A program made the position numbers and the translations under genes. Of a stretch of 64,000 nucleotides of DNA, positions 91-23,447 are shown one piece after another. The first letter of the stretch is position 1. Each line of letters starts with the position of its first letter. The notes beneath the pieces are model-generated. The model worked only from the letters and a program-made list of their open reading frames with translations. It was not told the DNA's origin and did no database searches. The stretch is from an uncultured delta proteobacterium. GTDB lineage: Bacteria > Desulfobacterota > Desulfobacteria > Desulfobacterales > B30-G6. Where the stretch lies: the NCBI GenBank assembly GCA_963823335.1, contig CAWGLD010000001.1, positions 640,001-704,000 of the forward strand. The letters are read 5' to 3'.

Positions 91-666
91 ATGAAAAAAT
101 ATGACATCATTGACACGGCAACACGGCTTTTTGCCACCCAGGGTTTTGATGGGACAACGACGCTGCAGATCGCAAGGGAAGCCAAGGTCACCGAACCCTT
201 GATTTATTACCATTTTGAGGGAAAAGACGATCTTTTTACCCATATCATTCGCAATGGCTTCGAGGCCTACTTTACCCGACTGGAATCGCTGAACCAGAAA
301 ACATCGACACAATTTGAAAAAATTGAAAATATTTTTACCCTGCACTTTGATTTTATCAATGAACGACCGGATGAGATATATCTGGTTGTCAGTGCTTGTC
401 CGGCCAAACTCAAAGACGCCAAACATATCTGCACACAAAAACTCGATAAGCAGCGCAAGTGGCTCGCGGCATATCTGAGAAAATGTATCAAGGAAGGTAT
501 TGCGAGCGGTGAATTCAAAGAGATGCCGGTTTCCGAAACCGTAACGCTGCTACTTGCCGTCATCAGCGGCATCATCCGTCAGCGTACGCTGAAACTTGAG
601 TCCCGCAGGGGAATGAAAAAGGCGGTCGTTGAATTCTGCCGCAGAAGCATGGTGCAGCAGGACTAA
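91..666 (+). CDS. TetR/AcrR family transcriptional regulator
   Basis: N-terminal HTH (ATRLFATQGFDGTTTLQIAREAKVTEPLIYYHFEGKDDLF); GGGAG RBS. Confidence 0.93.
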   Translation: MKKYDIIDTATRLFATQGFDGTTTLQIAREAKVTEPLIYYHFEGKDDLFTHIIRNGFEAYFTRLESLNQKTSTQFEKIENIFTLHFDFINERPDEIYLVVSACPAKLKDAKHICTQKLDKQRKWLAAYLRKCIKEGIASGEFKEMPVSETVTLLLAVISGIIRQRTLKLESRRGMKKAVVEFCRRSMVQQD

Positions 667-673
667 CCCGGGC

Positions 674-1180
674 ATGACACTTGAACCCCAATTGGTTCCC
701 GTCCTCAGGGAGGGAATCGATGTCATCAAGATGGTTCTGTTCCGGGAACTGAAATCATTGCTGCTTTCCAGGGGCAGGGAACCGGTCTATGTAAACAAGC
801 TCACGGGCGCTGTGGTGAATGAACTTTTCGGTATCATGCCTCCGGGAGCGGTCATTGAAAGTTTCAGCCGGACAAACCAGGATGCCGTCCAAAAGACACT
901 GGGAATGATCTCCACAAAACTCGACCACCTCAAGATACCCTTGACAGATGCCCTGCGTATTCAATTTCTTTGTGACAGCCATGAGGGCTTGAACAGCACT
1001 GCTGTTTTGGAAAAAGCCCAAAAGCGTGACATTCTGATTGTAGAAAGGGACGTGCCCCTGCCGGGTGCATTCATGAATATCGTTCGCAGTTTCGGCAGGT
1101 CCTATGGGATCCTTGACCCACAACCATTGACCACACCGGGAACGACACAGACAAACCAGCATGGAGGAATTGTCAAATGA
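674..1180 (+). CDS. Hypothetical protein, translationally coupled to mttB
   Basis: ATG at 674 just after the tetR stop; its TGA overlaps the mttB ATG (ATGA); protein-like composition. Confidence 0.7.
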   Translation: MTLEPQLVPVLREGIDVIKMVLFRELKSLLLSRGREPVYVNKLTGAVVNELFGIMPPGAVIESFSRTNQDAVQKTLGMISTKLDHLKIPLTDALRIQFLCDSHEGLNSTAVLEKAQKRDILIVERDVPLPGAFMNIVRSFGRSYGILDPQPLTTPGTTQTNQHGGIVK

Positions 1181-2673
1181 ATGAAAAAATTCAGCCACAA
1201 AGGTTGAAACCCCCTGCAGCGACGGGACTCCACATGGATATCCTGTCCGAAAAAGAGCTGAATGACCTCCACGACAGCACCCTTAAAGTCCTGGAAAAAA
1301 CGGGTCTCTTTATCGACAATGATGCGGCTTTGGATTGCTTTGAGAGGGCCGGTGCAAGCATAGATCGCAAAAGCGGCATCGTCAAGATACCGCCGCGGCT
1401 GGTGGAAGAAGCCGTTCAATCCGCCCCTTCAAAGGTCATGCTCGCCGGTCGTGATCCAAAACACGACCTGGTGCTCGGAGAAAATCGTGTTCACTTCACC
1501 AATTTCAGCGAAGGCGTCAAAATCAACGACCCATACACCGGTGAAAACAGGCCACCGGTCAAGAAGGATCTTGCGGATGTCGCACGGGTCATCGATTCTC
1601 TGGATGAAATTGACTTCTGTGAGAAAGCCATCGGCGCCCATGACGTACCCCAGGAGACCGTTCCCCTGCACAATGCCGAAGCTTTCCTCACCAACACCAC
1701 CAAACACTGTGCTTTTGGGCCCGGCAACGGAAATCTGCTCAACAAAATCATCGAAATGGCCGCCATCATCGTCGGCGGCGTCAAACAACTGGCAGAACGA
1801 CCCATCGTGTCATTCACTACCTGTCCGGTGAGTCCTTTGAAGCTGATCAAGGAATGCTGCGAGATCATCATGGTGTCAGCCAAAAACAATGTCGTATGCA
1901 ATATATTGTCCATGGCCATGGCCGGCGCCACATCCCCCGCAACCCTTGCCGGCACCCTGGTGACCCACAACGCGGAAATCCTGGGTGGTATCACGCTTTC
2001 GCAGTTGACCCGCAAGGGGGCTCCCGTGATTTACGGAAGTTCCACCACCGCCATGGATTTGAAGCTGGCCGAAGCATCGGTGGGCACACCCGAGTGCGCC
2101 CTCATCAGCGGCGCCGTAGTTCGGTTGGCGCGCTATTATGCGTTACCCAGCTACGTTGCCGGTGGGTAGGGCGACGGCAAGATATCAGACAGCCAGATGG
2201 GCCACGAAAAAACTCTCACCGGACTGATACCCGCATTGGCAGGTGCCGATATGATTTACGGTCCGGGGATGCTTGAAAGTGGCATCACCTTCGATCTTGC
2301 CCAACTGGTTCTCGACTGTGAATTTGCTCGTATGATAAAACATACCGTCAACGGTATTCCCGTTACCGAAGAGACCATTGCCCTGGGTGTTATCCAGGAA
2401 ATCGGGCCATTTGGCGATTTCCTGGCGCACAGGCACACATTTCAACACATGCGGGAACAATCGAGAGCCGAGATCATCGATCGCAGAATGCGAAGCGCCT
2501 GGGAGATGGACGGCGCCACCGACAGCTATACAAGGGCATGTCACAAGGTCCGCCAGATCCTGGAAAACCATTTTCCGGAGCCACTTCCCCCCGGCGTGCT
2601 GGCCAAGATCCGGCGTATCGTGCAAAAAACGGAGACCGAAATGGGTATTGCAAGCCCTGCTGAATCTTCATAG
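1177..2673 (+). CDS. mttB: Trimethylamine:corrinoid methyltransferase, pyrrolysine-containing (in-frame TAG at 2167-2169, codon 331; 498 aa)
   Basis: ORFs 1177-2169 and 2197-2673 are in one frame, separated only by TAG: YVAGG-O-GDGKISDSQMGHEKT, matching the MttB Pyl-site context. SPLK, MAMAGATSPATLAGT and GAPVIYGSST motifs are present. Confidence 0.93.
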
Positions 2674-2705: not shown

Positions 2706-4127
2706 ATGAATAACCGAATTCTAACCAGAATGGGTGACGGCGAACGAAAATGGCACTCAGAATCCGATGTCCGAGCAGATATCGACCAAGGTACAGCCGA
2801 TGCTGCCAAAAGGGCCGCTATCCCCGCATTGACAGACGAAGAGAAAAGCCAGCTTTTCGATATCATGGCAGATCCCTCCAGAATTGTCAGTGTTCATCCC
2901 GGAGAAGAAGTCATTGTCACCGATGATGGTTGCAGCATGAGTTTCTACTCGGGTCAGGACGGCGGTGGTGTGGGTATTCCCATGAGCCGTATGCAGGCCG
3001 TACTCACCTATGAGCGCGCATGCTGCGGTGACACGACATCCATCGGTCACAGTGATTATTCTTTCAAGCCGGTCAAACCCATCATCAATTTTGAAAAAAA
3101 TGATTATTACAACATTTCCATGGTGTCCACGGCACCCCTTTTCTACGGGGCACAACCCAACATGGGTCTTTACTTTCAACCGGACGGACCCTGCCCCAAC
3201 CCTTCGGAACTTCTCCCCATCGGTAAAATTGCCGAAGCACTTCAGGCACAGGAAGAGGCCGCCGAACATCTGACCAGGGATCTGGTCTATGTCGGCAAGA
3301 AAATGGCCGAAGTGGGGTGTGAAGGACTCAATTTCGACACCTCCGGGTCAGCGGGAGATGCAGATTTCCTGGCAGCCCTCAGGGCCGTGGAAGCATTGAA
3401 GCAGGCAGTTCCGGATATGCCGATACTCATGGGGGCTTCCGGAGAATTCGTTATCGGTATGCACGGTGATGTTGCCTATAAGAATCAGCGTCTGGCGGGT
3501 CTCTACCCTCACGAGCAGGCCAAGGTGGTTTCGGACGCAGGTGCCGATGTTTTTGGTCTTGCCATCGGCACCAATACGACCCGGTCCGTGGCCTGGAATC
3601 TTTCCAGAACAGTGACCTTTCTAAAGGAAACCACCGCCACATCCCCTATTCCGGTGCATGCCAACGTGGGCATGGGTGTCTGCGGTATCCCCATGATGGA
3701 ACAGACACCCATCGACAGTGTGACACGCGTTTCCAAGGCCCTGGTTCAGATTGGTAAAGCAGACGGATTGTAGATTGGCGTAGGTGATCCCTTTGGGATG
3801 CATATGGCCCATATTCTGGCTTCATGCATGGGTGGCATTCGGACTTCCGGAGATCTGGTCGCCTGGATGCAAATAACCCGCAGAATGAAAATTAATGAAG
3901 CCAAAAAATATGTGGCCAAAAAATTGAATGTCAATATTCTGGATCTGACCGACGAAGAGGTGATGCGCCCGATCCGTGAAGAACTGGGTATCGGCGTGGT
4001 TACCTCCGTTGCCGGCAGCCCCAAAGGCATCCGGGCAAAATGGAAAATCGCCGAGCTTCTGGACATTTCCATACGCTCGGTCGACCTGTTCAAATCACAA
4101 CTGTCGCCTGAACATATTATGAGATAG
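2706..4127 (+). CDS. mtbB: Dimethylamine:corrinoid methyltransferase, pyrrolysine-containing (in-frame TAG at 3771-3773, codon 356; 473 aa)
   Basis: ORFs 2706-3773 and 3798-4127 are in one frame across [46 protein letters not shown] and [10 protein letters not shown] motifs are typical of MtbB. Confidence 0.93.
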
Positions 4128-4132
4128 CCGGG

Positions 4133-4735
4133 TTAAGACAAGATACGCGTTTTGCTGCCCATGACCCTTCCTTGACATGCAAAATACTGCAGCGCCATCC
4201 ACAGCTTGACGTCACACATGGCGGTGCCGTCTGCAATGATTCGGGATGCCTCGGCAGAGGACAAGAGACAGACCTGGATGGTTTCGGTCCCTTGGTTTTT
4301 TTCGGTGGAAGGAACACCGTCACAGTCGCAATGGACCAGAGCAACCGATTCATCGGTCAGACCGGCGGTGTTGTACAGGGGTGGACTGATGCCCGTGATG
4401 CATTTCAGCGACAAGCCGGTTTCTTCCATGAGTTCCCGCCGGGCAGCCTCCTCAATGCTTTCACCGTCGTCGATCAGGCCTGCCGGAAATTCATATTGAA
4501 AACCTGCCAGCGATACCCGGTATTCCTTAAGCACAACCAATTTTTGTTCGGTGGTGTGAAACGGGATCATCAACACCGCATCAGGGATATTGAATTGACC
4601 CGAAACACACTTGGGCCGGCGGTTTCTCGATACGATCTGCCAGTTTCTCTTTCCGCCGACTTTATCGGTATAAGATATATCGAACAGGTTGATCCATTTG
4701 GCTTCGGTCAGTTTCTTAAATCCAGTTATTTTCAT
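4133..4735 (-). CDS. NUDIX hydrolase (ADP-ribose pyrophosphatase-like)
   Basis: Nudix box GLIDDGESIEEAARRELMEETGL. Confidence 0.9.
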   Translation of the reverse strand: MKITGFKKLTEAKWINLFDISYTDKVGGKRNWQIVSRNRRPKCVSGQFNIPDAVLMIPFHTTEQKLVVLKEYRVSLAGFQYEFPAGLIDDGESIEEAARRELMEETGLSLKCITGISPPLYNTAGLTDESVALVHCDCDGVPSTEKNQGTETIQVCLLSSAEASRIIADGTAMCDVKLWMALQYFACQGRVMGSKTRILS

Positions 4736-5222: not shown

Positions 5223-5648
5223 ATGATTCAGGTCACATCGAACATTCAAATCCATGAAAGTGATATGACCTTCGATTTCATTCGGGCATCCGGACCGGGA
5301 GGCCAGAATGTGAACAAGGTTTCCACGGCGGTCCAGCTTCGCTTCGCGGCCCTTCAATCCGGCAGTCTTCCCCCCGAGGTTTACTTTCGTCTGAAAAAGC
5401 TGGCGGGAAAACGGATCTCGGCGGAAGGCGTCCTGATTATCCAGGCCAAACGTTTTAGAAGTCAGGAGAAAAACCGTCAGGATGCCATCGAGCGCCTCGT
5501 CAGACTGATCCGGAAAGCAACTGAAAAACCAAAACCGCGCAGGAAAACACGACCTACAAGAGCCTCGAAAGAACGTAAACTGGCTGCCAAACAGCTTAGA
5601 AGCCGTTTGAAAAAAACCCGTCAACGTGTGTCGAGAGCAGACGACTGA
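5223..5648 (+). CDS. arfB: Alternative ribosome rescue peptidyl-tRNA hydrolase
   Basis: RASGPGGQNVNKVSTAV (GGQ motif), RSQEKNR, and a basic C-terminal tail. Confidence 0.95.
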   Translation: MIQVTSNIQIHESDMTFDFIRASGPGGQNVNKVSTAVQLRFAALQSGSLPPEVYFRLKKLAGKRISAEGVLIIQAKRFRSQEKNRQDAIERLVRLIRKATEKPKPRRKTRPTRASKERKLAAKQLRSRLKKTRQRVSRADD

Positions 5649-9985: not shown

Positions 9986-10792
9986 TCATCCGCCCGTCCG
10001 CAGGGTCGCAGCTTTCAGAACCTTGACGGATTCTGAAAGAATCCCTACCAAGCCGGGGTCTTCGATATGCGCTTCGATCAGTTTTTCGAAGGCGCTCCCC
10101 ACCACGACACCATCCGCCACGGCCGCGATCCCCGCCACATGGTCGGGGGTTGAAATGCCAAAGCCCACACAAATGGGCAGGGCCGTGATTGCTCGCAGAG
10201 GCGTGATCTTCTTGGCAATGTCCGCAAAATCCAGCCCATGACTGCCGGTGACGCCGGTCTTGGAAACCAGATACAAAAACCCCTTGCCGGCCCCGGCTAT
10301 TGCGGCCATACGATCTTGTGGGGTGGTGGGGGCCACCAGGCGTATCAAGGCCAGCTCCTGCCCCCCCCACACATCCGTCATTTCATCCGATTCCTCAGGC
10401 GGCAGGTCCACCACCAGCACACCATCCGCACCTGCACTAAGGGCGTCCCGGTAAAACCGGGCTGCACCGTAATTGAATATGGGATTGTAATAGCTGAAAA
10501 GAACGATGGGTATGCCGGTTTGCGTGCGGACCTTGCGGGTCATGGCCAGGACGGTCGTCAGGGATGTCCCCTTTTCAAGAGATCTTTCCGAAGATCTTTG
10601 AATAACCGGTCCGTCAGCGCTGGGGTCGGAAAACGGGATACCCAGCTCCAGGATATCCAGACCCGATCCACACATACCCAGGATAATTTCCAAAGACAGT
10701 TCAGGCGTCGGGTCACCGGCCGTGACAAACCCCACCAGTGCTTTTTCATTTTTCTGCTGTAGATTTAAAAATGTTTTTTGGATTCGATTCAT
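9986..10792 (-). CDS. trpA: Tryptophan synthase alpha chain
   Basis: [29 protein letters not shown] and ADGVVVGSA; start at MNRIQ. Confidence 0.96.
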
Positions 10793-10937
10793 ATAATACC
10801 CCTTTACTGCATTGTAACCGTTTTCATGAATAGATATTGTTTCCCCGCCGAAGCACCAGTCAAAAGTCAGACGGAACACATACATGGCAACAACTATAAA
10901 GCGGCAAAGCCGCGTCAGATAATATCGTGCAACGCTT

Positions 10938-12158
10938 TTATTCGGGAAATACAATCCCCAGATCCTTGTCTCCCCTGCCGGACAGATTGACCACGATGAT
11001 CTCATCAGGGGACCGCCGGGCCGCTTCCTTGATGGCATGGGCCAGGGCATGAGAGCTTTCCAGCGCCGGAAGAATGCCTTCCAGAGTACAGAGCTTGTGG
11101 AAGGCCGTCAGGGCTTCCGCGTCGGTAACGGTGACGTATTCCGCCCGCCCGATATCCTTGAAAAGAGCATGTTCAGGCCCTACTCCCGGATAATCGAGCC
11201 CGGCCGATATGGAGTGGGCCTCTTTTATCTGCCCGTTTGGATCCTGAAGCACATAGGACTTGGCCCCGTGCAAGACACCGACGCTTCCCGCCGTTAGGGT
11301 TGCAGCATGTTTTCCGGTGTCCATCCCCTGGCCACCGGCCTCCACGCCGATCATGGGCACATGGTCCTGGAGAAAAGGAAAAAAGAGCCCCATGGCATTG
11401 CTGCCGCCCCCCACACAGGCGATAAGAACATCCGGCAGCCGGCGGGTCATCTGCAGGATCTGCTTGCGGGTCTCTTCGCCGATAATTCTCTGAAAGTCGC
11501 GTACCATCTGTGGATATGGGTGGGGGCCTGCCACGGAGCCGATAACATAAAATGTGTCCTGGACCGAAGAAACCCAGAAGCGCATGGCCTCGTTCATGGC
11601 ATCTTTGAGTGTTCCGGTGCCGGTCTTTACCGGAACAATCTGCGCCCCCAAAAGCGTCATACGCCGCACATTGGGTGCCTGGCGGCGGATGTCTTCGGTA
11701 CCCATAAAAATCCGACATTCCATTCCAAAAAGCGCGGCCGTGGTGGCTGTAGCGACGCCATGCTGTCCGGCACCGGTTTCCGCAATCAACTTGCTTTTAC
11801 CTGTCCATTGGGCCAGCAGTCCCTGACCTAGAGTATTGTTGATTTTATGCGCCCCGGTATGGACCAGGTCTTCGCGTTTCAGATAGATGGCGGCACCCTT
11901 GGTATCATCGCTCAATCGACGGGCATGAAACAGGGGCGTCGGCCTGCCGGCATAGGTCTCGAGAAGTCGGCACAGCTCCCGCTGGAACGCAGAGACTCCC
12001 TGTATCTTTTGATATGATTCCTCCAGTTCCAGAAGCGCCGGCATAAGCGTCTCCCCGACATAACGACCCCCATAAGGTCCAAAATGCCCCTTTTTATCGG
12101 GATAGGGATGGGGCCCTGTCTGATCGGGTCCATGATTGGTTTGATCCGTTCTCAACAT
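10938..12158 (-). CDS. trpB: Tryptophan synthase beta chain
   Basis: [37 protein letters not shown] and NLSGRGDKD. Confidence 0.97.
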
Positions 12159-12864
12159 TAAATATCCTCCTGTTTGGTTTGGTTATGAGGGTCTTTTGGG
12201 TGGCCATAATAAATTGCTTCACTTTGCTGAGATCTTTTTCCCCGGGCATACTCTCAACACCGGAACTGACGTCCACAGCATCCGCTTGACATTGCGCTAT
12301 GGCTTGCCTGACATTGTCAACGGTGAGCCCCCCGGCCAGAACAAGGGCGACGTCTCGCCCGAAATTATGTAACAGGGAAAAATCCCAGGCCCTGGCATTG
12401 CCTCCCGGCAGGGGTCCCAGGCCACATTCCACCAGAAAGGCTGGCGCCGGGTAATGGTCGGTTTGGGTGAAAAAGGGTTCACGATGACTGAAAAGCGCCT
12501 TGATGACCGTTAGCCCCTGGTCACTTAATTTTTTCACGAGATCCGGCGGTTCCATACCGTGCAGCTGAACAGCCTGTAACCCAACTTTCCGGGTAACCTG
12601 CATGATGATATCAAAGGTTTCATCCACAAAGACACCCACCCTGCAGACAGACGGCGGCAGTGCCATGCAAATTTCTCGCGCCTGACCGACCGTGACATAT
12701 CTTGGACTTTGGGCATAAAAAACGAGACCGATGGCATCCGCACCCAGGGAGGCACAAGTTACAGCCTCATGGATGCGTGTCAGACCACAGATTTTAACCT
12801 GGGGCGAATAAAGGTTCTTTGCTGAATTCTGCGCCAGTTCTGTTCTGTTCATTCTGTTATGCAC
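12094..12864 (-). CDS. trpF: Phosphoribosylanthranilate isomerase
   Basis: VKICGLT, VQLHG, LAGGL and VDVSSGVE; start uncertain. Confidence 0.93.
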
Positions 12865-13651
12865 ACTGAACCTCCAGGTAGGATCTCAAGCGCTCGCCCG
12901 GGTGGCCGGACCGTACAAGACTTTCACCGATCAGAAAATTGTGCAGACCAGCCCGGCAGTTCCTGACAATGTCAGCCCTGTTCTGAATACCGCTGGCCAC
13001 GACAGGTATCTGCTTCGGGCCAAGCAGTTTGCCCATATCCAGGGCTCTTTCAGTATGGGTTTCAAATGTGGAAAGATCGCGGTTGTTGATACCGATCAGT
13101 CTGGTATCGATCCCCGCGGTCCTGCTGACATCTTCCTGTGAATGCACCTCCACCAGCGCTTCGAGATTCAACTCACGGCATAAGGCAAGATAGCGTGTGA
13201 GCTGCTTCAGGGTCAGAATTCTCACGATCAGCAGAATGGCATCGGCACCCATGGCGGCCGATTCCAACACCTGGTATTCGGATATGATAAAGTCCTTGCG
13301 TAAAACCGGAATGCTTGTCACCGCTTTTACCTGATGCAGATCATCGGGCCCGCCCTTGAAAAATCGGCTGTCCGTCAAAACCGAGATGGCAGCAGCACCC
13401 GATTCTTCATAGATACGTGCCATTTCTGCGGCATCGAGAGTTTCGCGCAATATGCCCTTGGAAGGGGAAGCGCGTTTGATTTCAGCAATAATGTTCACCT
13501 GGCCCGGCCGGCACAAGGCCTGGCTCAACGACCGTCTGGGCCTGTCCTGACGGATGGTTTTCATCAGTGCCGCTTCGGGAGTTCTTCGTCTGGCCTCCGC
13601 AACCTCCTGTTGCTTGTGTTGCACGATGGTTTCAAGAAAGGGTTTTGCCAT
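12857..13651 (-). CDS. trpC: Indole-3-glycerol phosphate synthase
   Basis: IIAEIKRASPSKG, PVLRKDFI and IGINNRDL. Confidence 0.95.
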   Translation of the reverse strand: MAKPFLETIVQHKQQEVAEARRRTPEAALMKTIRQDRPRRSLSQALCRPGQVNIIAEIKRASPSKGILRETLDAAEMARIYEESGAAAISVLTDSRFFKGGPDDLHQVKAVTSIPVLRKDFIISEYQVLESAAMGADAILLIVRILTLKQLTRYLALCRELNLEALVEVHSQEDVSRTAGIDTRLIGINNRDLSTFETHTERALDMGKLLGPKQIPVVASGIQNRADIVRNCRAGLHNFLIGESLVRSGHPGERLRSYLEVQCA

Positions 13652-13702
13652 GCTGCAGCTCCTTTGGATTTCCTTTAATCAGCTTTGCCATAATTCCAGG
13701 GA

Positions 13703-14716
13703 TCACGCCTGATTGGTAAACTGAATAAGCTGGTAGAGCTTATCTTCAGCCGCCCCGGAATCGACGGCCTCACCTGCCAGATGGATACCGTCCTTGATGT
13801 CTGCAGCCTCACCTGCCACCACCAGAGCCGCACCTGCATTCAACAGCACCACATCCCGTCTGGGCCCTTTTTCCCCTTTCAGGATCCCCAGAGTGATGGC
13901 TGCATTCTCAGACGGGCCGCCGCCTGCCAGATCCTGCAAATCGGTGTTCCGGTCAAAGAATTGATCGGGCAACAGATCATAGGTCTTGATTTTTCCGTCG
14001 ATCAATTCGGAGATGCGTGTGGGAGCACTGAGGGATATTTCATCCAGCCCATCGTGGCCATGGACGACAAAAGCGCGCCGGGTTCCCATGCCCTGCAGGG
14101 CCTGGGCGAACATTTCCGTCAATTCGGGGGCATACACGCCCAGGAGTTGACAATTCGCGCCGGCAGGGTTGGTCAGGGGGCCCAGCATATTGAAAATAGA
14201 CCGGATACCCACTTCCTTTCTGGCAGTTGCGGCGAACTTCATGGCGCCATGATACAATGGCGCAAACAGAAACCCGATATTGATGTCGCAAATCCCCTCT
14301 TCAACCATTTCCGGGTCAAGATTCAGGTTGACACCCAGGGCTTCCAGAAGATCGGCGCTGCCGCACCGGCTGGACACGGAACGATTGCCGTGTTTTGCCA
14401 CCGTAACCCCACAACCCGCAACCACCAGGGCCGTGGTGGTGGAAATATTGAAGGTGCTGGCTCCATCACCGCCGGTCCCGCAGGTATCGAGCACAACGGA
14501 GCGGGTGCCCTGAACACGCTTGGCCTTCCTGCGCATGGCCCTGGCAGCACCGATCAGCTCTTCGAAGGTTTCTCCCTTGGTGGACAATGCCCCTATGAAT
14601 GCGCCGATCTGTGAATGGGTGATGGTACCAGACAAAATTTCCGTGATCATCTGCGACATGGTCTCTTCGCTCAAATTCCTGCCCCTGATGATTTCTTGCA
14701 ACCCTTCTTTGAACAT
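13703..14716 (-). CDS. trpD: Anthranilate phosphoribosyltransferase
   Basis: DTCGTGGDG, FNIST and AKHGNRSVSS. Confidence 0.96.
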   Translation of the reverse strand: MFKEGLQEIIRGRNLSEETMSQMITEILSGTITHSQIGAFIGALSTKGETFEELIGAARAMRRKAKRVQGTRSVVLDTCGTGGDGASTFNISTTTALVVAGCGVTVAKHGNRSVSSRCGSADLLEALGVNLNLDPEMVEEGICDINIGFLFAPLYHGAMKFAATARKEVGIRSIFNMLGPLTNPAGANCQLLGVYAPELTEMFAQALQGMGTRRAFVVHGHDGLDEISLSAPTRISELIDGKIKTYDLLPDQFFDRNTDLQDLAGGGPSENAAITLGILKGEKGPRRDVVLLNAGAALVVAGEAADIKDGIHLAGEAVDSGAAEDKLYQLIQFTNQA

Positions 14717-14727
14717 AGACTTTCTCC

Positions 14728-15384
14728 TTATTCGGTCTTAGGCCCTTTTTCGTGTTTTCGTACTTTCGTGATTTGGTGATAAAGATCTTTTTCTTTTCCT
14801 GTTTGTCCGGGTTGGCTTATTGTCTGCGACAAAAAATTTCTCAACAACCGTTTGCCCACCGTGGTCATGATGGATTCCGGATGAAACTGGACACCTTCGG
14901 TTGGGTGTTCCCGGTGACGGATACCCATGATCTCGCCATCATCGGATTCCGACGAAATATCGAACACACCCGGCAGAGTATCTCTGTTTACCGCAAGTGA
15001 ATGATAGCGCATGGCCTTGAACGGCGAACGGATTTTTTGATAAATTGCCTTGCCGTCTCCGGTGACATCGGAAGTTTTGCCATGCATGATGTTTTTTGCA
15101 GAAACAATCTGACCCCCAAAAGCCATGGCAATGGCCTGGTGCCCGAGACACACCCCCAGCAAGGGAATTTTACCGCTGAAGATCTGAATGGTATCAACCG
15201 AAATACCGGCATCCTCGGGTCGCCCAGGTCCCGGTGAAATGACGATACCAGAAGGATCTAAGTCCCTGAGCGCATTCACGCTGGTCTTGTCGTTGCGGAA
15301 CACCTGAACATCCGCCCCGAGTTCCTCCATGTATTGCACCAGGTTATAGGTAAACGAGTCATAGTTATCGATCATAATGATCAT
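14728..15384 (-). CDS. trpG: Anthranilate synthase component II (glutamine amidotransferase)
   Basis: IDNYDSFTYNL, SPGPG, GVCLGHQ and FHPES; AAGGAG RBS before the ATG at 15384. Confidence 0.95.
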   Translation of the reverse strand: MIIMIDNYDSFTYNLVQYMEELGADVQVFRNDKTSVNALRDLDPSGIVISPGPGRPEDAGISVDTIQIFSGKIPLLGVCLGHQAIAMAFGGQIVSAKNIMHGKTSDVTGDGKAIYQKIRSPFKAMRYHSLAVNRDTLPGVFDISSESDDGEIMGIRHREHPTEGVQFHPESIMTTVGKRLLRNFLSQTISQPGQTGKEKDLYHQITKVRKHEKGPKTE

Positions 15385-15471
15385 GTCCGTTCTCCTTTCA
15401 GTAAATCCATTGTATGCTGGAAAACGAGGATGCCTGGAAACTGGGATGCTGCTGTCAGCCACCCTCGAACC

Positions 15472-16947
15472 CTACTCTTGCATCATCTCCAGGGCTTTCT
15501 GGATTGACATGGCTTTGTTGACGGTTTCGGCATACTCCTTCTCCGGGTCGGAATCGACAACAATACCGGCCCCGGCTCTCACGGTCAGACGGCCCTTTTC
15601 GATACAGGCCGTACGAATCGTTATGGCCAGATCCATGTTGCCGCCGAATGAAATGTAGCCCACGGCACCGCCATAAGGTCCCCGCGGTTCGGTTTCGAAC
15701 ATGGAAATCAGCTCCATGGCCCGCACCTTGGGTGCGCCGCTCAGGGTTCCTGCCGGGAAGGTGGCTTTCAGAAGATCCCAGGCGTTCAGGTCACCCCTGA
15801 GATCACAGCAGATATTGGATACCATGTGCATGACGTGCGAATAACGTTCGATGATCATCAGATCCGTAACCTGCACGGTACCTGTCTCGGCAACACGTCC
15901 GAGATCGTTTCTACCCAGATCCACCAGCATGAGATGTTCGGCTTTTTCTTTTTCATCTTTGAGCAGTTCATCGGCCAGGGCGCGGTCCTCTTTTTCTGTT
16001 TCGCCCCTTGGCCGCGTACCGGCGATAGGTCGCAGTGTGGCAACCCCATTTTCAAGACGCACCATGGTTTCCGGCGAAGACCCCACCAGGGTTATGTCGT
16101 CCAGTTTCATGAAATAGAGATACGGTGAGGGATTGATGTAACGCTGGGCCCTGTACAACAGCCATGGGTCAGGAGCCGCGTCATATACAAATGGCTGGGA
16201 AATGACGGCCTGAATGATATCTCCCTGATAAATGAACGCTTTGATTTTCTTGACAATGTCCTGGTACGACGATGCCTGGGGAGATACCCGCAGGACAGGT
16301 TTGTGCGTTAAAAACTTTGTACGCATTTTTGGAACCGGTGAGGCAATAATGTGCAAAATTTCCTTTATGCGGTCATGGGCCTTGTCGAATACGTCTGCGG
16401 GTGCCATGCCATCTGAAATAAATCCCGTCACGACGCAGTAAAGCGTGTGACGGACATTATCAAAAATGATCAACTCATCCGGCAGAATAAAATGCGCCAG
16501 GGGTTTGGCGGAATCATACTGATGTGGAATCGCTTCGAAAAATGAAACCATCTCGTAGGACAGATAACCCACGATACCACCCCAGAAGCGTGGCAGGTCG
16601 GAAATCTGTGCCGGTAAATACCGCGCCATAAAGCCTTTCAGAATCTTTAACGGATCACCCTTGTGGGGAAGACTTTCCGATTGGTCTGCGGTCTGGATTT
16701 CGACTGCCTCGGCATACACCTTGAGGTGACATTTTGCCGATATACCCAAAAAGCTGAAACGACCCCAGCGTTCCCCTCCGGCGGCGCTTTCCAGCAGAAA
16801 GACAGGCTTGGGGGTGTCATAGAATTTCTGTAGAATGGAGACGGGTGTTTCCGTATCCGCCAGAATCTCCACCCAAACCGGTATCACATTAAATTTTTTG
16901 GCAAGTTCGCAAAATCTTGCTTTGTCCGGTAGTTGATTGATCTGCAT
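15472..16947 (-). CDS. trpE: Anthranilate synthase component I
   Basis: FLLES, NPSPY, PIAGTRPRG, EHLMLVDLGRND and GTLSGAPK; AAGGAG RBS. Confidence 0.96.
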   Translation of the reverse strand: MQINQLPDKARFCELAKKFNVIPVWVEILADTETPVSILQKFYDTPKPVFLLESAAGGERWGRFSFLGISAKCHLKVYAEAVEIQTADQSESLPHKGDPLKILKGFMARYLPAQISDLPRFWGGIVGYLSYEMVSFFEAIPHQYDSAKPLAHFILPDELIIFDNVRHTLYCVVTGFISDGMAPADVFDKAHDRIKEILHIIASPVPKMRTKFLTHKPVLRVSPQASSYQDIVKKIKAFIYQGDIIQAVISQPFVYDAAPDPWLLYRAQRYINPSPYLYFMKLDDITLVGSSPETMVRLENGVATLRPIAGTRPRGETEKEDRALADELLKDEKEKAEHLMLVDLGRNDLGRVAETGTVQVTDLMIIERYSHVMHMVSNICCDLRGDLNAWDLLKATFPAGTLSGAPKVRAMELISMFETEPRGPYGGAVGYISFGGNMDLAITIRTACIEKGRLTVRAGAGIVVDSDPEKEYAETVNKAMSIQKALEMMQE

Positions 16948-17081
16948 TGAATCTGTCTCCTTCATACCCATGCTGTTTGTCAGAATAACGTTCCGAAACT
17001 GCTTCGGCAAATAACGTCAAACAGCCGCCGAAGCGTTAGCCTAAAGCCAAACGGAGCATCCTTATGACAACGGCTATAAGC

Positions 17082-17117
17082 AAAAAAAGGGCCGTGGTTG
17101 CAGCCACGGCCCTTTTT
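17082..17117 (-). terminator. Second (distal) terminator hairpin of the trp leader
   Basis: AAAAAGGGCCGTGG-CTGCAA-CCACGGCCC-T7 on the minus strand. Confidence 0.85.
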
Positions 17118-17124
17118 CATGCAT

Positions 17125-17160
17125 AAAAAAAGCCGCGGTGAGTCGAGCTGCCCGCGGCTT
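17125..17160 (-). terminator. Attenuator terminator (3:4) of the trp leader
   Basis: AAGCCGCGG...CCGCGGC-T7; its 5' arm can instead pair with CTGCCTACGG in the leader. Confidence 0.85.
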
Positions 17161-17185
17161 GTTTCAATCTATGTCACTTATGGTA

Positions 17186-17272
17186 TTACACGTATAAAAC
17201 TCCGTAGGCAGGTCTGGATATTTGAACCTGCCACCACCAAAATCGACTGTTTGTTTGTATAAAATGATTCAT
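17186..17272 (-). CDS. trpL: trp operon leader peptide MNHFIQTNSRFWWWQVQISRPAYGVLYV
   Basis: 28-aa ORF with three consecutive TGG codons, GAGGT RBS, followed by attenuator hairpins and trpE. Confidence 0.9.
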   Translation of the reverse strand: MNHFIQTNSRFWWWQVQISRPAYGVLYV

Positions 17273-17353
17273 GACGGTGACCTCTATCACAGTGCGAAAA
17301 CACTGGCAAGTTGTTTCTGTATCGGATCGGCAAAACCCTCCCGGATCATCCGC

Positions 17354-18085
17354 TTATGACTTTTTTCCCAGGCGCTGATGAATCCTCTGAACGGCCGCCA
17401 TGAAAGCAGATCGGCTCTCCGCGGCATAGGGGTTGTAGGTATTCATGTCCTCGAACAACTGCCAGGTGTCGTTTTCCACCACCCCAAGAACATGCAGCAG
17501 TCGCTGGTAACCTTCGGTGTCGACATCCAGGGGCGTGGCCCCGAATTCGGACAGGGACCGGCCGATAAAATGTGTCAGCGCAAGACTGACGGCGATCTGC
17601 CGGTCATGCACTTCCGGTGTGGCTTCGATGACCATCAATCCCTTGGACATCAGATAGGATTTAATTTTATGGCAGGCCGAATCATTGATCCTTTCTGCAC
17701 ACACAACAATCTTTCTCCCCTGGAGCGTATGGGCGGCACTGTCGGGGCCGAACATGGGGTGGGTCGCCAGGATGGACACCTGTTCCGGCAACAACTCTTT
17801 CATCAACCTGACCGGGTATTCCTTGACCGAGCACACATCGATCACCAGGGCATCCGGATCCAGCAGCGGTGCAATCGTTTCGAGGGTATCACGTAAAACA
17901 GATATGGGCACCGAGAGGATGATTATTTTTTGACGACATGCCACGTCAAGAGATGCGGGTTTCGCACCGCTTGCCAGAATCGCATGGGCATTATCACTAC
18001 GGTTGTAGATCATGACATCAAAATCTTTTGCCAGGTAATGTGCCATCAGTTTTCCGAATCGACCAAACCCCAAGATACCGATCAT
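17354..18085 (-). CDS. tyrA: Prephenate/arogenate dehydrogenase
   Basis: GILGFGRFG, DVCSVK, THPMFGP and HD..IA...ALTH. Confidence 0.88.
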   Translation of the reverse strand: MIGILGFGRFGKLMAHYLAKDFDVMIYNRSDNAHAILASGAKPASLDVACRQKIIILSVPISVLRDTLETIAPLLDPDALVIDVCSVKEYPVRLMKELLPEQVSILATHPMFGPDSAAHTLQGRKIVVCAERINDSACHKIKSYLMSKGLMVIEATPEVHDRQIAVSLALTHFIGRSLSEFGATPLDVDTEGYQRLLHVLGVVENDTWQLFEDMNTYNPYAAESRSAFMAAVQRIHQRLGKKS

Positions 18086-19212
18086 AATACGCTCGCAATC
18101 CTTTGAAAACCAGTTATCAGCTCTTTTTCCGGAACAGCATAGGATATCCGGATATGGCCTCCCGTTCCGAAAGCCTCACCGGGGACCACCGCAACACCCC
18201 CTTTTTCGAGAAGATGGGCAGAAAAATTTTCGGATGTGTAGCCTTCTTTCAAATATTGAGACACATCCGGGAAAAGGTAAAAGCCACCCGCGGGCTTAAT
18301 GCAGTCGAACTGTCGACATGCATATTCATAAGCCAGATCTCTTTTTTTCTTCATTCGTGCACAATTCTCTTCCATCAGCAAGGGATCCAGGGAGAGAGCC
18401 GCCAGGGCACCTTCCTGGGCAAAGGTGCATACATTGCCGGTCAGATGGCTTTGAAGCCGGGCCATCGCTGCAATGACTTCTCTGGGTGCCGCCACATAGC
18501 CGACCCTGAAGCCTGTCATACCATAGGTTTTTGAAAAACTCCTCACCACAATAAGTCTGTCCCGAATATCTTCCATACTGGAAAAACCGTCCGACAGACC
18601 GTCTTCATACAGGAAGGCGCAATAGGCTTCATCCGCAATGATGAACAGATTCCTTGATACGGCGATATCGGCAATCTTTCTCAAAACGCTGAAAGGATAG
18701 ACAGCCCCTGTGGGGTTGTTGGGAGAGTTAATGATAATTGCACGGGTCCGATCCGTCACAGCTTCGGCCACAGCCCGGCAGTCGAGCTGGTGCGCCACGG
18801 TGTCCACGAACACCGGAACTGCGGAAGCGAGTCTCACCTGCTCTGAAAAACTGACCCAGTAGGGTCGTGGAACGATCACCTCGTCCAGCGGGTTACAGAT
18901 GATCTGGAAGATGGCATAAAGGGCTTGCTTGGAGCCGTTGGAAATGATGATGTTCTCTTCATTGTAGCCTTCAATCTGTTTGGAAAGCCTGGATCTCAGC
19001 GCCTTGATTCCCTGGACAGCACTGTAACGTGTCTTCCCGTCGTCAAGAGCTTGTTTGGTAGCAGCAACCACAGATAGCGGTGTTTCATGATCGGGTTCAC
19101 CCACGGCCAGGTTGATGATGGACTCACCTTTTGCGGCACGCCTGGCCAACAGGGATGTAAACTGTACGGTTCTGGATTCCGTGACAGCCGTCAGGCGATC
19201 GGAGAGTCTCAT
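18082..19212 (-). CDS. Class I/II PLP aminotransferase (aspartate/prephenate aminotransferase-like)
   Basis: [16 protein letters not shown] and [14 protein letters not shown]; lies between aroC and tyrA. Confidence 0.88.
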
Positions 19213-20300
19213 GACAGATCCTGTTTTCTTGTCTTCTGCAGCAACAGCATGTCTGCGATCACCAGGGCGGCCATCCCTTCCACAATGGGCACGGCACGCG
19301 GGACGACACAGGGATCGTGCCGCCCACTGGCTTCCAGAATCGTTTCGACACCTTCGAAATCAACGGTCTGTTGAGCGATTCCTATGGTGGCCGGGGGTTT
19401 GAAAGCCACCCGGAAATAAATCTGCTCACCGTTGGTAATACCACCCTGGATACCGCCGCTGAAATTGGTTTTGGTCCTCAAACCTTTTTCCGTCGCTATA
19501 AACGGGTCGTTGTGTTCCGAGCCCTGCATTCGGGTTCCGGAAAAGCCGGATCCGATTTCGAAACCCTTCGTGGCTGGAATCGACAGCATGGCCTGAGCCA
19601 GGGCTGCCTCCATTTTCCCGAACACCGGCTCTCCCAGACCTGCCGGAACCTGCCTGCAAACACAGTTCACAATACCGCCAATGGAATCCCGTTTCTCTTT
19701 CAGGGATTTGATGTGTTGGATCATCTTTTCTGCGGTTGCCAGATGGGGGCAGCGAATCAGGTTCTGATCCACCTCTTCCCGTGAGATCTGTTGCATATCG
19801 ATGTCGGGTGCCTGGATATTGCCCACGGCACTTACCCAGGCAACAATCTCCACACCTGAATGCTCCACGAGGATCCTCTCTGCGATGGCACCACCTGCCA
19901 CGCGTGCGATGGTTTCCCTGGCACTGGCCCTGCCACCGCCACTGACGGATCGCGTACCGTATTTTGCCTGGTATGTAAAATCGGCATGGGACGGCCGGGG
20001 AATGGTTCGAAACCGTTCATAATCTCCGGGCACCTGGTCATGGTTGGCCACATAAAAAGCGATGGGTGTTCCCAGCGTACGATCCTCTTCGACACCTGAG
20101 ACAATCGTAACCGTATCGGCTTCTTGTCTATCGGTGGTCAGAGAGCTCTGCCCCGGCCGCCTGCGATTCAACTGTGCTTGAATGTGCGCTTCCGTCAGGA
20201 AAACATTGGCAGGACACCCGTCCAGAACACCGCCCACGCTCTTCCCATGGGATTCCCCAAAACTTGTAAGACGCAACACCTTACCTAAATGACTCGACAT
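19209..20300 (-). CDS. aroC: Chorismate synthase
   Basis: [28 protein letters not shown] and GRHDPC. Confidence 0.97.
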
Positions 20301-20415
20301 GATGACTCCTCAATTATAGGGATAGGCTATAGACTATAGACTGTTAGTCATTTAGCGGCTTGCAGCCTGTAGCTCAACTTTCGGTTTTCACCATCGATAG
20401 AACGAAATGAGTGAT

Positions 20416-22332
20416 TCAATGGCGATTTGTGCTGTTTGAGCCGCTTAGGGCTTCACTTACGGCCGCCCGCATCACCTCAACAGGTGCCTGCATGCCTGTC
20501 CAGAGCTCAAACTGGAACGCACCCTGATAGACGAACATGGGAAGACCATGAATGGTGGCACACCCGGCTGCGGTCGCGTCTCTTAACAGGCGTGTCTGCA
20601 GGGGTGTGTAGATAACATCCATGACCGTCATGTGCTCCTTAAAAAATGTTCCGGGAACCGGTGTCGCGTCGACATTCGGAAACATCCCCACCGGTGTCGT
20701 GTTGATCAGGATATCACACCCCACCCCTTGGATCTCCGCCAGCGGAGAAAACTCAGCGCCAAGATCGTCAGCCAGCTGCTCACCGGTTTTTGTCGTTCTG
20801 TTTACCACGATCACGCTGCCCTTATTTTCCAGGATACCGAACCCGATAGCCCGGGCAGCACCCCCCGCGCCAATAATTGCCACACGCCGGTTTTTTAGGG
20901 AGCTTCTCTCGGTGAGGGCCGACACAGCACCCAGGGCATCTGAATTATATCCGGTCAGGACGCCGTTCTGATTGAGAATCGTGTTCACGGCACCGATTTT
21001 TTCCGCCATGGCATCCACATGATCCAGGTGGGGCATCACCCGGACCTTGTGAGGTAATGTAATACTGGCACCCTTCATATTGAGGGTTTTCATGGCCGAA
21101 ACAGCCCCGGCGATGGTTTTGATTCTAAAGGGGAGATAGACGCCGTTATACCCTGAAAATGCAAAGGCCCTGTTGTGCATGACCGGGCTCAGGCTGTGAG
21201 ATATGGGATCACCAAAAATACCGAAAAGTGCCGGCGTTTCACTTTGCAATCGTCTTTCTGCACCCCTTGAAATATGGGCCCGGGACCGGCTCTCGCCCGT
21301 GGGAGATGTCAGGCACTTCATACCCACTCGAACCTCCTCCAGGGAGAGGGAGCGGACAACCGTACGGCCTAATTTTTCCAGAAGGACAAAATGAATGAAA
21401 CCCCCTTCACGTTTTTTGTCTTTTTGCAGGGCATCCCACACCCGGTCTGCATCCACCGCTATCTGGGTTGGCAGGGCCAGGTCCTGCAACAGACGCTGCA
21501 GTCGTTTGACGTCGGTGTTCTTCAGAAGACCTTTTTCCTCTGAAACAGCCGCAGCAATCATCATGCCCACGCTGACCGCCTCGCCGTGGGAAATACCGGC
21601 GGTCTTTTCGATGGCATGACCAAACGTGTGTCCAAAATTCAGTTTCCGCCGCTCGCCTTTTTCGCGTTCATCCCGGTTGACAACTGCGGCCTTGATCCTG
21701 ACGGACTCATAAACCAGTTTCTCGATGACGGAAAGATCAAGGGCGAGTGCTCGCGCTGCATTCACCTCCAAGTATGCAAACATGTCGGCATCTGCTATGG
21801 CACCATGTTTGACGATCTCTGCAAACCCGCAGGATATCTCCCGGTCAGGCAGGGTCGTCAACAACGACAGATCGCAGATGACGAACTCCGGCTGGTTAAA
21901 CACCCCGACAATATTCTTATACCCCTGGAAATTGACACCGTTTTTGCCTCCCACGCTGGCATCCACCTGTGACAGCAGGGTGGTGGCAACATACCCGAAC
22001 CGCAAACCACGCATGAAGGTCGAAGCAACAAACCCTGTGATATCACATACGATTCCGCCACCGATGCCCACAAGAAATGTCGACCGGTCCGCCCCGAAAG
22101 AGAGAAGCTGCCGATAGATGTTCTGGACGGTTTCAAGACGCTTGACGCTTTCCCCCACTCCGATGGTAACAACCTTACAGGGGGGAAAGCGTTTGCCATA
22201 AATTTCAGCTACGCGGGTATCCGTGATGACAATGGTATTCTGCACAGGTACATAAGTACTTAGACTGTCTATGGATTCCCCCACCAGGATGACAGTATCA
22301 CCCGTGCCCCCTTTTATCTGAATCGTTTTCAC
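20416..22332 (-). CDS. aroB-aroE: Fused 3-dehydroquinate synthase / shikimate dehydrogenase
   Basis: N-terminal GGGIVCD, QVDASVGGKNG and LNFGHTFGH; C-terminal HSLSPVMHN, TLPHK, IGAVNT, GAGGAARA and NTTPVGM. Confidence 0.92.
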   Translation of the reverse strand: MKTIQIKGGTGDTVILVGESIDSLSTYVPVQNTIVITDTRVAEIYGKRFPPCKVVTIGVGESVKRLETVQNIYRQLLSFGADRSTFLVGIGGGIVCDITGFVASTFMRGLRFGYVATTLLSQVDASVGGKNGVNFQGYKNIVGVFNQPEFVICDLSLLTTLPDREISCGFAEIVKHGAIADADMFAYLEVNAARALALDLSVIEKLVYESVRIKAAVVNRDEREKGERRKLNFGHTFGHAIEKTAGISHGEAVSVGMMIAAAVSEEKGLLKNTDVKRLQRLLQDLALPTQIAVDADRVWDALQKDKKREGGFIHFVLLEKLGRTVVRSLSLEEVRVGMKCLTSPTGESRSRAHISRGAERRLQSETPALFGIFGDPISHSLSPVMHNRAFAFSGYNGVYLPFRIKTIAGAVSAMKTLNMKGASITLPHKVRVMPHLDHVDAMAEKIGAVNTILNQNGVLTGYNSDALGAVSALTERSSLKNRRVAIIGAGGAARAIGFGILENKGSVIVVNRTTKTGEQLADDLGAEFSPLAEIQGVGCDILINTTPVGMFPNVDATPVPGTFFKEHMTVMDVIYTPLQTRLLRDATAAGCATIHGLPMFVYQGAFQFELWTGMQAPVEVMRAAVSEALSGSNSTNRH

Positions 22333-23447
22333 CAGAGCGGCTCCTGAATCTTGTCGATAATCCGGGTTGTTGACCCACCGCCATAGGCCATGTTTCTGAA
22401 GTAGTAGCGGCCCAGTTTTTCATGGGCGTTTAAAAGCAACTGTTCGGTCGCTTCCCATGAAATACACTCGTCGGTGATGGAAACCCCATATTTCAAATCG
22501 GCATGGCTACCGCTAAATTTCTGATTTCCCTCATGGAGATTGCTCTCCAGCATCATTCCCATGATCGCGTCGTTACCATTGAGAAACTGGTGCAGAATAT
22601 TTCGCCATACAACCGACTGACCCTGGAATTTCTTTTTGGAATTGGCATGCGAACAATCGACCATGATTTTGGCCGGCAGGTCCTTGGATACCAGGTCGAG
22701 GTGTGCCTCTTCGATACTCAAGGCATCATAATTCGGCCGACTGCCACCTCGAAGAACCACATGCCCGCTTGAATTCCCCATTGTCTGGACAATACAGGTC
22801 TGCCCTTCCTGGTCGATGCCCAGAAACGACTGGGGTGCTCTGGCCGCTAGCATGGCATTGATGGCCGTGGAAAGATTGCCGTCCGTGGCATTCTTAAAAC
22901 CAACCGGCATGGACAGACCGCTTGACATCTCCCGATGAATCTGGGACTCGGTGGTTCGGGCACCGATGGCCGCCCAGGAAATGAGATCGTCCACATACTG
23001 GGGTGTAATGGTTTCCAGGAGCTCCGTTCCGGCCGGCATGCCAATCTCCGTGATGCGGCGTAGAATTCTTCTTGCCTTTCGCAGACCCTCCTGAATATCG
23101 CAGGTACCGTCGAGGTTCGGATCATTGATCAGCCCTTTCCAGCCCACGGAGGTTCTCGGTTTTTCAAAATAAACCCGCATGACGATGAACAGGGTCTTTT
23201 CAACTTTTTTTCTCAACTCGTTCAGTCGCTCAGCATATTCGTAAGCAGCCTTTTCATCGTGAATCGAACAGGGTCCGACAATCACCAATAACCGTCGATC
23301 GATACCCTCAAGAATATTATCGATACACTTGCGACCGAAAATGACTGTTTTTGTGGAAGCTTCGTTCACTGGAATCTCTTTCTTAAGGGCTCTCGGTGGC
23401 ACCAGGGGTTTATAACCACCGACTCTTAAATCCTGTGTCTGTTGCAT
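22329..23447 (-). CDS. aroG: Class I-alpha DAHP synthase (AroF/G/H type)
   Basis: VGPCSIHD, RVYFEKPRT, IGARTTESQ and VDCSHANS. Feedback isoform not determinable. Confidence 0.93.
   Translation of the reverse strand: MQQTQDLRVGGYKPLVPPRALKKEIPVNEASTKTVIFGRKCIDNILEGIDRRLLVIVGPCSIHDEKAAYEYAERLNELRKKVEKTLFIVMRVYFEKPRTSVGWKGLINDPNLDGTCDIQEGLRKARRILRRITEIGMPAGTELLETITPQYVDDLISWAAIGARTTESQIHREMSSGLSMPVGFKNATDGNLSTAINAMLAARAPQSFLGIDQEGQTCIVQTMGNSSGHVVLRGGSRPNYDALSIEEAHLDLVSKDLPAKIMVDCSHANSKKKFQGQSVVWRNILHQFLNGNDAIMGMMLESNLHEGNQKFSGSHADLKYGVSITDECISWEATEQLLLNAHEKLGRYYFRNMAYGGGSTTRIIDKIQEPLW

Follow-up and report, generated by a model that had tools for sequence, protein, structure and literature searches.

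The 64,000-nucleotide stretch analysed here (the window; contig CAWGLD010000001.1, positions 640,001 to 704,000, of an uncultured sediment bacterium of the Desulfobacterales) very probably carries an intact pair of methylamine methyltransferase genes, mttB and mtbB, in both of which an internal UAG is read as pyrrolysine (Pyl), together with an RNA hairpin downstream of each of these codons that appears to have been selected at the level of the message. In itself the mttB gene is unremarkable, as Pyl-MttB has already been reported from sulfate-reducing Desulfobacterales (PMC8318568, PMC1976440). The novelty would lie in the RNA element, since in the literature searched the hairpin is not described for mttB, and this hairpin may be the long-sought signal that tells Pyl codons from real stops.

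The mttB and mtbB genes and their in-frame TAG codons

A preliminary description of this DNA had noted two open reading frames (ORFs) in one frame parted only by a TAG, and a read-through product of 498 amino acids with the segment YVAGG-TAG-GDGKISDSQMGHEKT; a check of ORFs and translation confirmed the former and reproduced the latter exactly, with the frame starting at an ATG at 1177, reopening after the TAG at 2167-2169 and closing at a TAG at 2671-2673. The read-through MttB matches PF06253 in a profile scan, scores 718.2 bits on the full-length profile TIGR02369 (cut-off 525), and aligns over its full length with MttB of Methanosarcina barkeri (PDB 7XCL, E 4e-110). In that alignment the TAG falls on the X (Pyl334) of the archaeal enzyme, in keeping with the description's statement that Methanosarcina MttB carries Pyl at about this position. 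The column of the catalytic Tyr364, encoded 3' of the TAG, is Tyr361 in the window MttB and Tyr in 162 of 163 Pyl rows, and the Met249 column is likewise kept. Judged from the stop-triplet frequency of the genome, the chance of a 167-codon open frame following a stop is ~0.003.

In related mttB loci, obtained from a scan of species genomes at 52-90% identity, the Pyl column is TAG in 59 of 59 and never TAA or TGA, and a 99%-identical contig of a separate assembly (L212) carries both the mttB and the mtbB TAG, so that the mttB TAG is no sequencing error. The median ratio of nonsynonymous to synonymous differences (pN/pS, as simple uncorrected counts against the window sequence) amounts to 0.21 upstream and 0.29 downstream of the TAG in mttB (59 loci) and to 0.21 and 0.22 in mtbB (28 loci), which indicates that both halves of each gene are under purifying selection. 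The window MtbB passes as a Pyl-type MtbB (TIGR02368, PF09505) by its score and by its amber codon at about residue 356; none of the solved structures searched with it matched. Taken with the pyl gene set below, the Pyl column and the invariant TAG support the description's proposal of one intact gene probably read with Pyl. Of the outcomes that the description had named as refuting it, neither a TAG outside the Pyl column nor a genome lacking pyl genes was observed.

Both genes also end in TAG (regions 2671-2709 and 4125-4136), and reading through these terminal codons would add 12 residues to MttB, up to a TGA overlapping the mtbB start, and 3 to MtbB. A meaningful terminal TAG was considered and rejected, the codon being kept in only 5 of 54 mttB and 7 of 29 mtbB relatives. 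Nor were RNA data counted as evidence of transcription; 18 RNA runs contain part of the stretch, and of four that were mapped to it one (X1) gave contigs that bridge both internal TAGs, but the coverage includes flanking DNA.

Pyrrolysine machinery and UAG usage

The genome (4.37 Mb, 93.9% complete, 4.6% contaminated) was searched for pyl genes, a check that the preliminary description had proposed, and pylT, pylSc, pylSn, pylB, pylC and pylD were all found, the five proteins scoring above their profile cut-offs. The tRNA-Pyl(CUA) at C2:80111-80184 folds as a cloverleaf, and a tRNA-Sec is also present. Contig C2 has the order pylT-pylSc-pylC-pylD-pylSn, with a corrinoid gene and a second mttB-mtbB pair nearby; a hydantoinase/oxoprolinase-family gene (L002:1267-3279, G000:C2) stands between that pair and the corrinoid-pylT cluster. 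The usual single cassette, with pylB between pylSc and pylC, was not found, pylB lying apart on contig C1; in relatives it adjoins the cassette in 8 cases and is on another contig in at least 6. Loss of pylB, with desmethyl-Pyl as the product, was rejected, the gene on C1 being intact although the C2 cassette has none. There it ends a run (G000:C1:1457355-1462490, L015:5356-10488) with a methyl-tetrahydrofolate:corrinoid methyltransferase, a 4-aminobutyrate aminotransferase and an aldehyde oxidoreductase, and its own terminal codon is TAG; the aldehyde oxidoreductase is also found near pyl genes in L357 and in 4 loci of another phylum.

In the working proposed for the locus, PylBCD would make Pyl and PylSc/PylSn would charge tRNA-Pyl with it, and the internal UAG at residue 331 of MttB, like that of mtbB, would be decoded as Pyl. 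MttB would then bind trimethylamine at the Pyl imine and move a methyl group to a corrinoid protein, and MtbB would carry out the same transfer from the dimethylamine product. As suggested by the gene content and by PMC8318568, the methyl group would most likely pass to tetrahydrofolate and be oxidised by a reverse Wood-Ljungdahl pathway with sulfate as acceptor.

UAG also serves as a common stop. By in-house calling of non-overlapping frames, TAG ends 465 of 2169 long frames (21%), and decoding is therefore ambiguous, the same codon being a stop and a Pyl sense codon in one genome. TAG is not sense throughout, as it would be in the genome-wide TAG=Pyl code (Code 34; 10.1101/2024.09.30.615893). 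A genome-wide scan for TAG codons with coding-like flanks gave 133 sites, among which were 9 of the 11 known Pyl genes. New Pyl proteins among these candidates were not accepted, as by eye only methyltransferases seem credible and the remainder resemble neighbouring genes or shadow frames. Paralogues carrying two Pyl, or a Sec and a Pyl, were likewise rejected, since in the 11 regions with extra stops those that were aligned proved to be terminal stops or a broken gene.

Structure and conservation of the hairpins

The mttB message can form an inner hairpin AUUGGC-AGGU-GCCGAU (2235-2250), the loop of which lies 74 nt after the U of the UAG, and the mtbB message an inner hairpin CCGG-AGAU-CUGG (3847-3858) with its loop at 80 nt; the folding z-scores, for segments picked post hoc, are -2.5 and -2.3. 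The minimum of synonymous variability of the whole mttB gene falls at codons +17 to +28 after the TAG, with a 10-codon observed/expected ratio of 0.44 against a median of 1.02 (28 genes below 85% nucleotide identity, drawn from 60), and that of the whole mtbB gene starts at codon +25 (0.51 against about 1.0; 17 genes of 29). When paralogues from relatives are included, a 6-pair stem with an AG(G/A)N loop is present in 98 of 128 Pyl-mttB, always at +74, and in 0 of 52 non-Pyl homologues, and at least four pairs form at +80 in 38 of 38 mtbB. As most non-Pyl homologues differ in the peptide, the Leu-Ala dipeptide provides the fair control: it is coded TTG GCA in 99 of 111 Pyl-mttB, in 0 of 9 non-Pyl homologues and in 3.3% of cases (271/8178) genome-wide.

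Pairing in the six-pair stem amounts to 92.6% over 47 mttB rows below 90% identity, as against 27-52% for slid partners, and the closing pair is A-U in 27, G-C in 14 and G-U in 2. The 12 mtbB pairs are 94.2% formed (23 rows), four of them changing on both sides, and slid-partner pairing over the two genes together ranges from 21 to 57%. Hairpins are kept by 18 of 25 mttB and 21 of 24 mtbB cluster representatives below 70% identity (0.18 and 2.18 expected from a synonymous-codon null), and by 9 of 15 and 9 of 11 at 60%. Within the host genome, a stem of at least 6 pairs in the interval searched follows 8 of the 465 TAG-ended long frames, all 8 being Pyl genes, and relaxing this to at least 4 pairs gives 21 frames, of which 10 are Pyl genes; at the terminal TAGs of the window mttB and mtbB a hairpin of this type was sought and none was found. 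By the comparative evidence the hairpin is real, and there is every likelihood that selection maintains it, as RNA, after the Pyl UAG.

Several observations weigh against so simple a picture. The hairpin rule was derived from the same genes that it scores, and although the covariation score was reached by 0 of 500 shuffles for mttB and for mtbB alike, these counts are not probabilities because the sequences are related. RNAalifold recovers just 3 pairs on the 47-row mttB alignment, and the mttB outer stem is 72.6% paired. Even a 4-pair hairpin is missing from 26 of 163 Pyl-mttB rows, of which 13 belong to one clade from related genomes and retain no trace, 8, in the clade to which the C6 paralogue of this genome belongs, have an imperfect and partly compensated version, and 5 others have a mismatch beside the loop.

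Hairpins outside the defining set

In further loci, many of them close kin and one row each being this genome's own C2 gene, 6 pairs are present in 30 of 35 mttB and at least 4 pairs in 66 of 71 mtbB. The TIGR02368 scores of distant mtbB genes (44-61% identity) are 464-558 bits, as for the Desulfobacterales genes, and their neighbours (18 scanned) look bacterial. A set from another phylum was drawn from the class of a genome titled Thermoleophilia, with 64-72% GC and with mttB taken from the 30 best loci. There the 6-pair stem stands at +74 in 26 of 27 distinct Pyl-mttB rows (0.02 expected), and mtbB forms at least 4 pairs in 15 of 23 (0.32 expected) and has an AGA(C/U) loop in 23 of 23. As a point against the generality of the rule, the preset interval of +66 to +90 fails in 11 of 11 bacterial Pyl-mtmB; post hoc, a long hairpin whose loop, at +116, contains AGGN was found in 10 of the 11 from the other phylum, and this hairpin is built of codons that are nearly unused elsewhere (CTA 1/222, ATA 0/207, GTA 2/300, AAT 1/99). 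A second frozen hairpin of these mtmB genes lies at codons +62 to +79 (near +66), ~200 nt after the UAG, with an observed/expected ratio of 0.07 (L325-L335).

Possible function of the hairpin and alternative explanations

According to the available text of two recent sources (PMC12626013, 2025; 10.1101/2024.09.30.615893), no mechanism for targeted Pyl insertion has been validated in any organism. The role favoured here for the hairpin, at about even odds, is that of raising the full-length yield at the Pyl UAG; it would be a dispensable enhancer to which a putative factor binds. The AG(G/A)N loop is common to three unrelated methyltransferase families, at 74 (mttB), 80 (mtbB) and 116 nt (mtmB) from the UAG, which suggests one reader. 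A wider proposal, to which somewhat less than an even chance is given, holds that such hairpins mark Pyl codons in Pyl-using bacteria in which UAG is still a common stop, with one putative reader favouring insertion over release in all three families, and that they would thus be a true bacterial pyrrolysine insertion sequence (PYLIS). Two other candidates were rejected, namely a classical PYLIS directly behind the UAG, where the first 70-100 nt have z-scores of -1.1 to +1.2 and synonymous conservation just after the TAG ranks only 31-78 of ~420 segments (5-15 codons), and re-initiation at the ATG behind the AGGU loop, which is CTG, GTC or another codon in paralogues.

The search for a reader speaks against the idea of a dedicated factor. 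The genome, when searched for an extra SelB-like gene or a lone wing domain, returned one SelB, two EF-Tu-like matches and no separate wing domain, and a comparison of 17 Desulfobacterota with 17 other-phylum pyl regions gave no further common gene beyond PylSc, PylSn, PylB, PylC, PylD and the corrinoid protein (the aldehyde oxidoreductase being present in 1 and 4 loci). SelB is encoded in 5 of 5 other-phylum Pyl genomes tested and does not discriminate.

The strongest alternative, tentatively rated at two chances in five, is that the Pyl enzymes are made by plain competition of tRNA-Pyl with release factor 1, and that the hairpin, though real, serves another role, such as mRNA stability, the blocking of Rho-dependent termination after ribosome drop-off at the UAG, or feedback from Pyl supply. 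The distance of the loop from the UAG agrees with this and counts against a role in insertion, being 74-116 nt as compared with ~16-25 nt for the hairpin loops after likely Sec codons in this genome; the distance also varies between families, and some Pyl-mttB have no hairpin. In Methanosarcina, moreover, the archaeal PYLIS is reported to be non-essential (PMC2933860) and amber to be ambiguous (PMC12626013). What argues for a link with decoding is that the hairpin is tied to genes with an internal TAG, being missing from non-Pyl homologues with the same peptide, and that the AG(G/A)N loop recurs in three unrelated families.

It is rather improbable that the window MttB is a Pyl enzyme that prefers another methylated amine, with the six Pyl-MttB paralogues of the genome (the others at 37-59% identity to the window MttB) splitting the work. 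In favour of such a specialisation, which would tell against a trimethylamine enzyme, are a locus without a corrinoid or transporter gene and a substitution at the Gly110 column. This residue, which contributes a main-chain carbonyl and a cis peptide, is described as invariant across 66 Pyl-MttB (PMC9842639); the window MttB has Ser111 there. Of 82 relatives that are at least 63% identical, 80 likewise have Ser in this column and 2 are unaligned, as opposed to Gly in 78 of 81 more distant Pyl-MttB, so that substrate or kinetics may differ. Set against that are the 718 bits on the trimethylamine equivalog TIGR02369 and the presence, in 32 of 59 loci, of a Pyl-mtbB directly coupled to mttB, which fits a stepwise demethylation of trimethylamine. 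The active site of the window MttB would work as the archaeal one does, but the two are not identical. The whole clade of the window MttB is marked by Ser-Glu (window 1507-1512) in the Gly110-Thr111 columns.

A reading of the conserved stretch as a DNA operator, in which a regulator, for instance the TetR protein encoded nearby, would bind an inverted repeat, is very unlikely; the mttB core is indeed a near-perfect inverted repeat, and TetR genes stand beside two mttB-mtbB pairs, but G-U pairs are tolerated or invariant (in the window mttB stem, and at mtbB pair 79-86, which is G-U in 23 of 23), mttB, mtbB and mtmB have the loop alone in common, their stems being unrelated in sequence, and a TetR gene lies upstream beside mttB in just 6 of 59 loci. 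A nonsense mutation, an error of assembly or a boundary between two separate genes can practically be dismissed as the source of the TAG, for although a standard gene caller splits the sequence into frames of 330 and 158 amino acids and the assembly has the completeness and contamination given above, the invariance of the TAG, the purifying selection on either side of it, the catalytic Tyr encoded after it and the complete pyl set all speak for an intact gene with an internal Pyl codon.

If the hairpin acts on read-through, it would explain how about one-fifth of genes can end in UAG in these bacteria, would be of help in predicting Pyl proteins, and amber suppression as used in genetic-code expansion might be improved with it. 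Synonymous changes can break and rebuild the 16-nt element, and a cultured relative, Desulfocicer vacuolatum DSM 3385, carries it in a 72%-identical mttB that has the TAG and adjoins mtbB, in a genome with pylSc; the question is therefore directly testable.

Predicted methylamine metabolism of the host genome

The genome contains six full-length Pyl-mttB and one fragment among 26 MttB-family matches, many of them non-Pyl, and five Pyl-mtbB. The fragment (G000:C5:313321-313494), apparently a remnant, keeps the Pyl TAG and the hairpin motif, and a non-Pyl MttB-family gene (G000:C8:3433-4719, L092) is in pieces with an internal TGA. Also encoded are corrinoid proteins, four RACo-type activases, a methyl-tetrahydrofolate:corrinoid methyltransferase and an acetyl-CoA synthase. 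The preliminary description had suggested a probable sulfate-reducing bacterium, and this is supported by dsrA (615.8 bits, above cut-off) and by closest relatives titled Desulfobacterales; it has to be kept in mind, as a point against the proposed sulfate-linked pathway, that the test for sulfate reduction covered dsrA and that sat, aprAB, dsrB, dsrD and the reductive direction are presumed from the Desulfobacterales relatives.

Among 41 genomes searched, which are related and not independent, pylSc and pylB are each found in 17 of the 18 with an MttB match at E 1e-100 and in 0 of the other 23; in a phylum-wide sample, with at most three candidates scored per genome, a Pyl-type mttB is present in 3 of 401 genomes. 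The only MtmB-family gene of the host has no internal stop and Val at the Pyl202 column, and the third demethylation is therefore not covered by a Pyl enzyme. It lies at G000:C7:374563-375909 (L009:12549-13931, minus strand) next to a corrinoid protein, an MtaA-like methyltransferase and a non-Pyl MttB. MtmB-family matches occur in 16 of the 41 genomes, with an internal stop in 0 of 20 matches, and non-Pyl MtmB has been reported to act on quaternary amines (PMC13044021). In the other phylum, one pylSc match has an internal TAG (G724:C9:10153-10875).

Neighbouring genes in the window

The coordinates of the gene run are collected in Table 1. A homologue of the hypothetical protein that precedes mttB is found near mttB in 11 of the 59 related loci, a 43%-identical paralogue of the TetR regulator adjoins the mttB-mtbB pair of the C2 pyl cluster, and a Nudix gene on the opposite strand converges on the run. 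A distant non-Pyl MttB-family gene (24-30% identity, GTSGSG at the Pyl position) neighbours the Pyl-mttB upstream in 25 of 59 loci (L025-L031, L040-L060 and others). Farther on, a frame at 5223-5648, ~1 kb past mtbB, is presumably a ribosome-rescue factor like ArfB/YaeJ (GGQ motif), and the minus strand at 9986-23447 holds what we take to be an aromatic amino-acid run, with genes like trpA, trpB, trpF, trpC, trpD, trpG, trpE, aroC, a fused aroB-aroE and DAHP synthase.

Table 1. Genes, in-frame TAG codons and predicted message hairpins of the mttB-mtbB run, in window coordinates
Feature	Position	Strand	Remarks
TetR-family regulator	91..666	+	First in gene run; profile match
Hypothetical protein, 168 aa	674..1180	+	Stop overlaps mttB start; no Pfam or NCBIfam match
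mttB, pyrrolysine-type trimethylamine:corrinoid methyltransferase	1177..2673	+	498 aa; terminal codon TAG; PF06253, TIGR02369
In-frame TAG of mttB	2167..2169	+	Residue 331, Pyl334 column by alignment to PDB 7xcl; TAG in 59/59 related loci
mttB message hairpin	2219..2266	+	Inner 6-pair stem 2235-2240/2245-2250; AGGU loop 2241-2244; weaker outer stem 2219-2226/2259-2266
mtbB, pyrrolysine-type dimethylamine:corrinoid methyltransferase	2706..4127	+	473 aa; terminal TAG; TIGR02368 544.9 bits, cut-off 369.1
In-frame TAG of mtbB	3771..3773	+	Residue 356; TAG in 29/29 alignments spanning the column
mtbB message hairpin	3835..3870	+	Inner stem 3847-3850/3855-3858; AGAU loop 3851-3854; outer stem 3835-3842/3863-3870

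Comparison with known systems

Like the bacterial selenocysteine insertion sequence (SECIS), which is read by SelB, the element is a hairpin in the coding region 3' of a recoded stop. The same AGGU loop is present ~22-25 nt from the UGA at four likely selenocysteine sites of this genome, which we take to be of heterodisulfide-reductase type. Unlike in SECIS, the loop of the Pyl hairpins lies 74-116 nt from the UAG and the genome has one SelB, so that neither a close hairpin nor a dedicated factor was found.

Among described PYLIS elements, the window scores 72.4 on RF02510 (PYLIS_3, mttB; gathering threshold 38) and 73.8 on RF02509 (PYLIS_2, mtbB; 36), much of either score being likeness of the coding sequence. 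RF02509 draws a hairpin with an aGAc loop at the place of the mtbB hairpin, whereas RF02510 has no such hairpin for mttB, and its consensus forms few pairs there. Theil Have et al. (2013; PMC3639795) report that mttB shows no common structure, and the available part of that paper does not describe a loop common to families. The literature search, which mostly did not extend to subscription journals, returned no description of a bacterial mttB hairpin or of a loop shared between families.

The M. barkeri MttB (PDB 7XCL/7XCM/7XCN; PMC9842639) has the same Pyl, Tyr364 and Met249 columns as the window MttB and differs in Gly110-Thr111, the archaeal enzyme having these residues where that of the bacterial host has Ser-Glu. 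A mutagenesis primer for M. barkeri mttB1 (GCC GGT GCC AAC; PMC9842639) has no first loop A of the bacterial hairpin, a contrast with archaea that is drawn from this one primer and the Rfam consensus.

The closest parallels are bacterial. Kivenson et al. (2021; PMC8318568) described marine Desulfobacterales with Pyl-MttB and MtbB, up to five mttB copies, pyl and sel genes, dsr and a reverse Wood-Ljungdahl pathway. The present genome has the same enzymes and pathway, and a genome named there has a 72%-identical orthologue (L059); it differs from those genomes in its six full Pyl-mttB and a fragment, its five Pyl-mtbB and a pylB on another contig. By its mttB gene alone it adds another relative of sulfate reducers that may compete with methanogens for trimethylamine. 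No mRNA element is described in the available part of that study. The delta-1 symbiont of Olavius algarvensis has pylT, pylSn, pylSc, pylBCD and eight Pyl methyltransferases (PMC1976440), and its orthologue L056 is 67% identical to the window mttB; the study of that symbiont, in its available text, found no common RNA structure, whereas in the present analysis L056 carries both hairpins.

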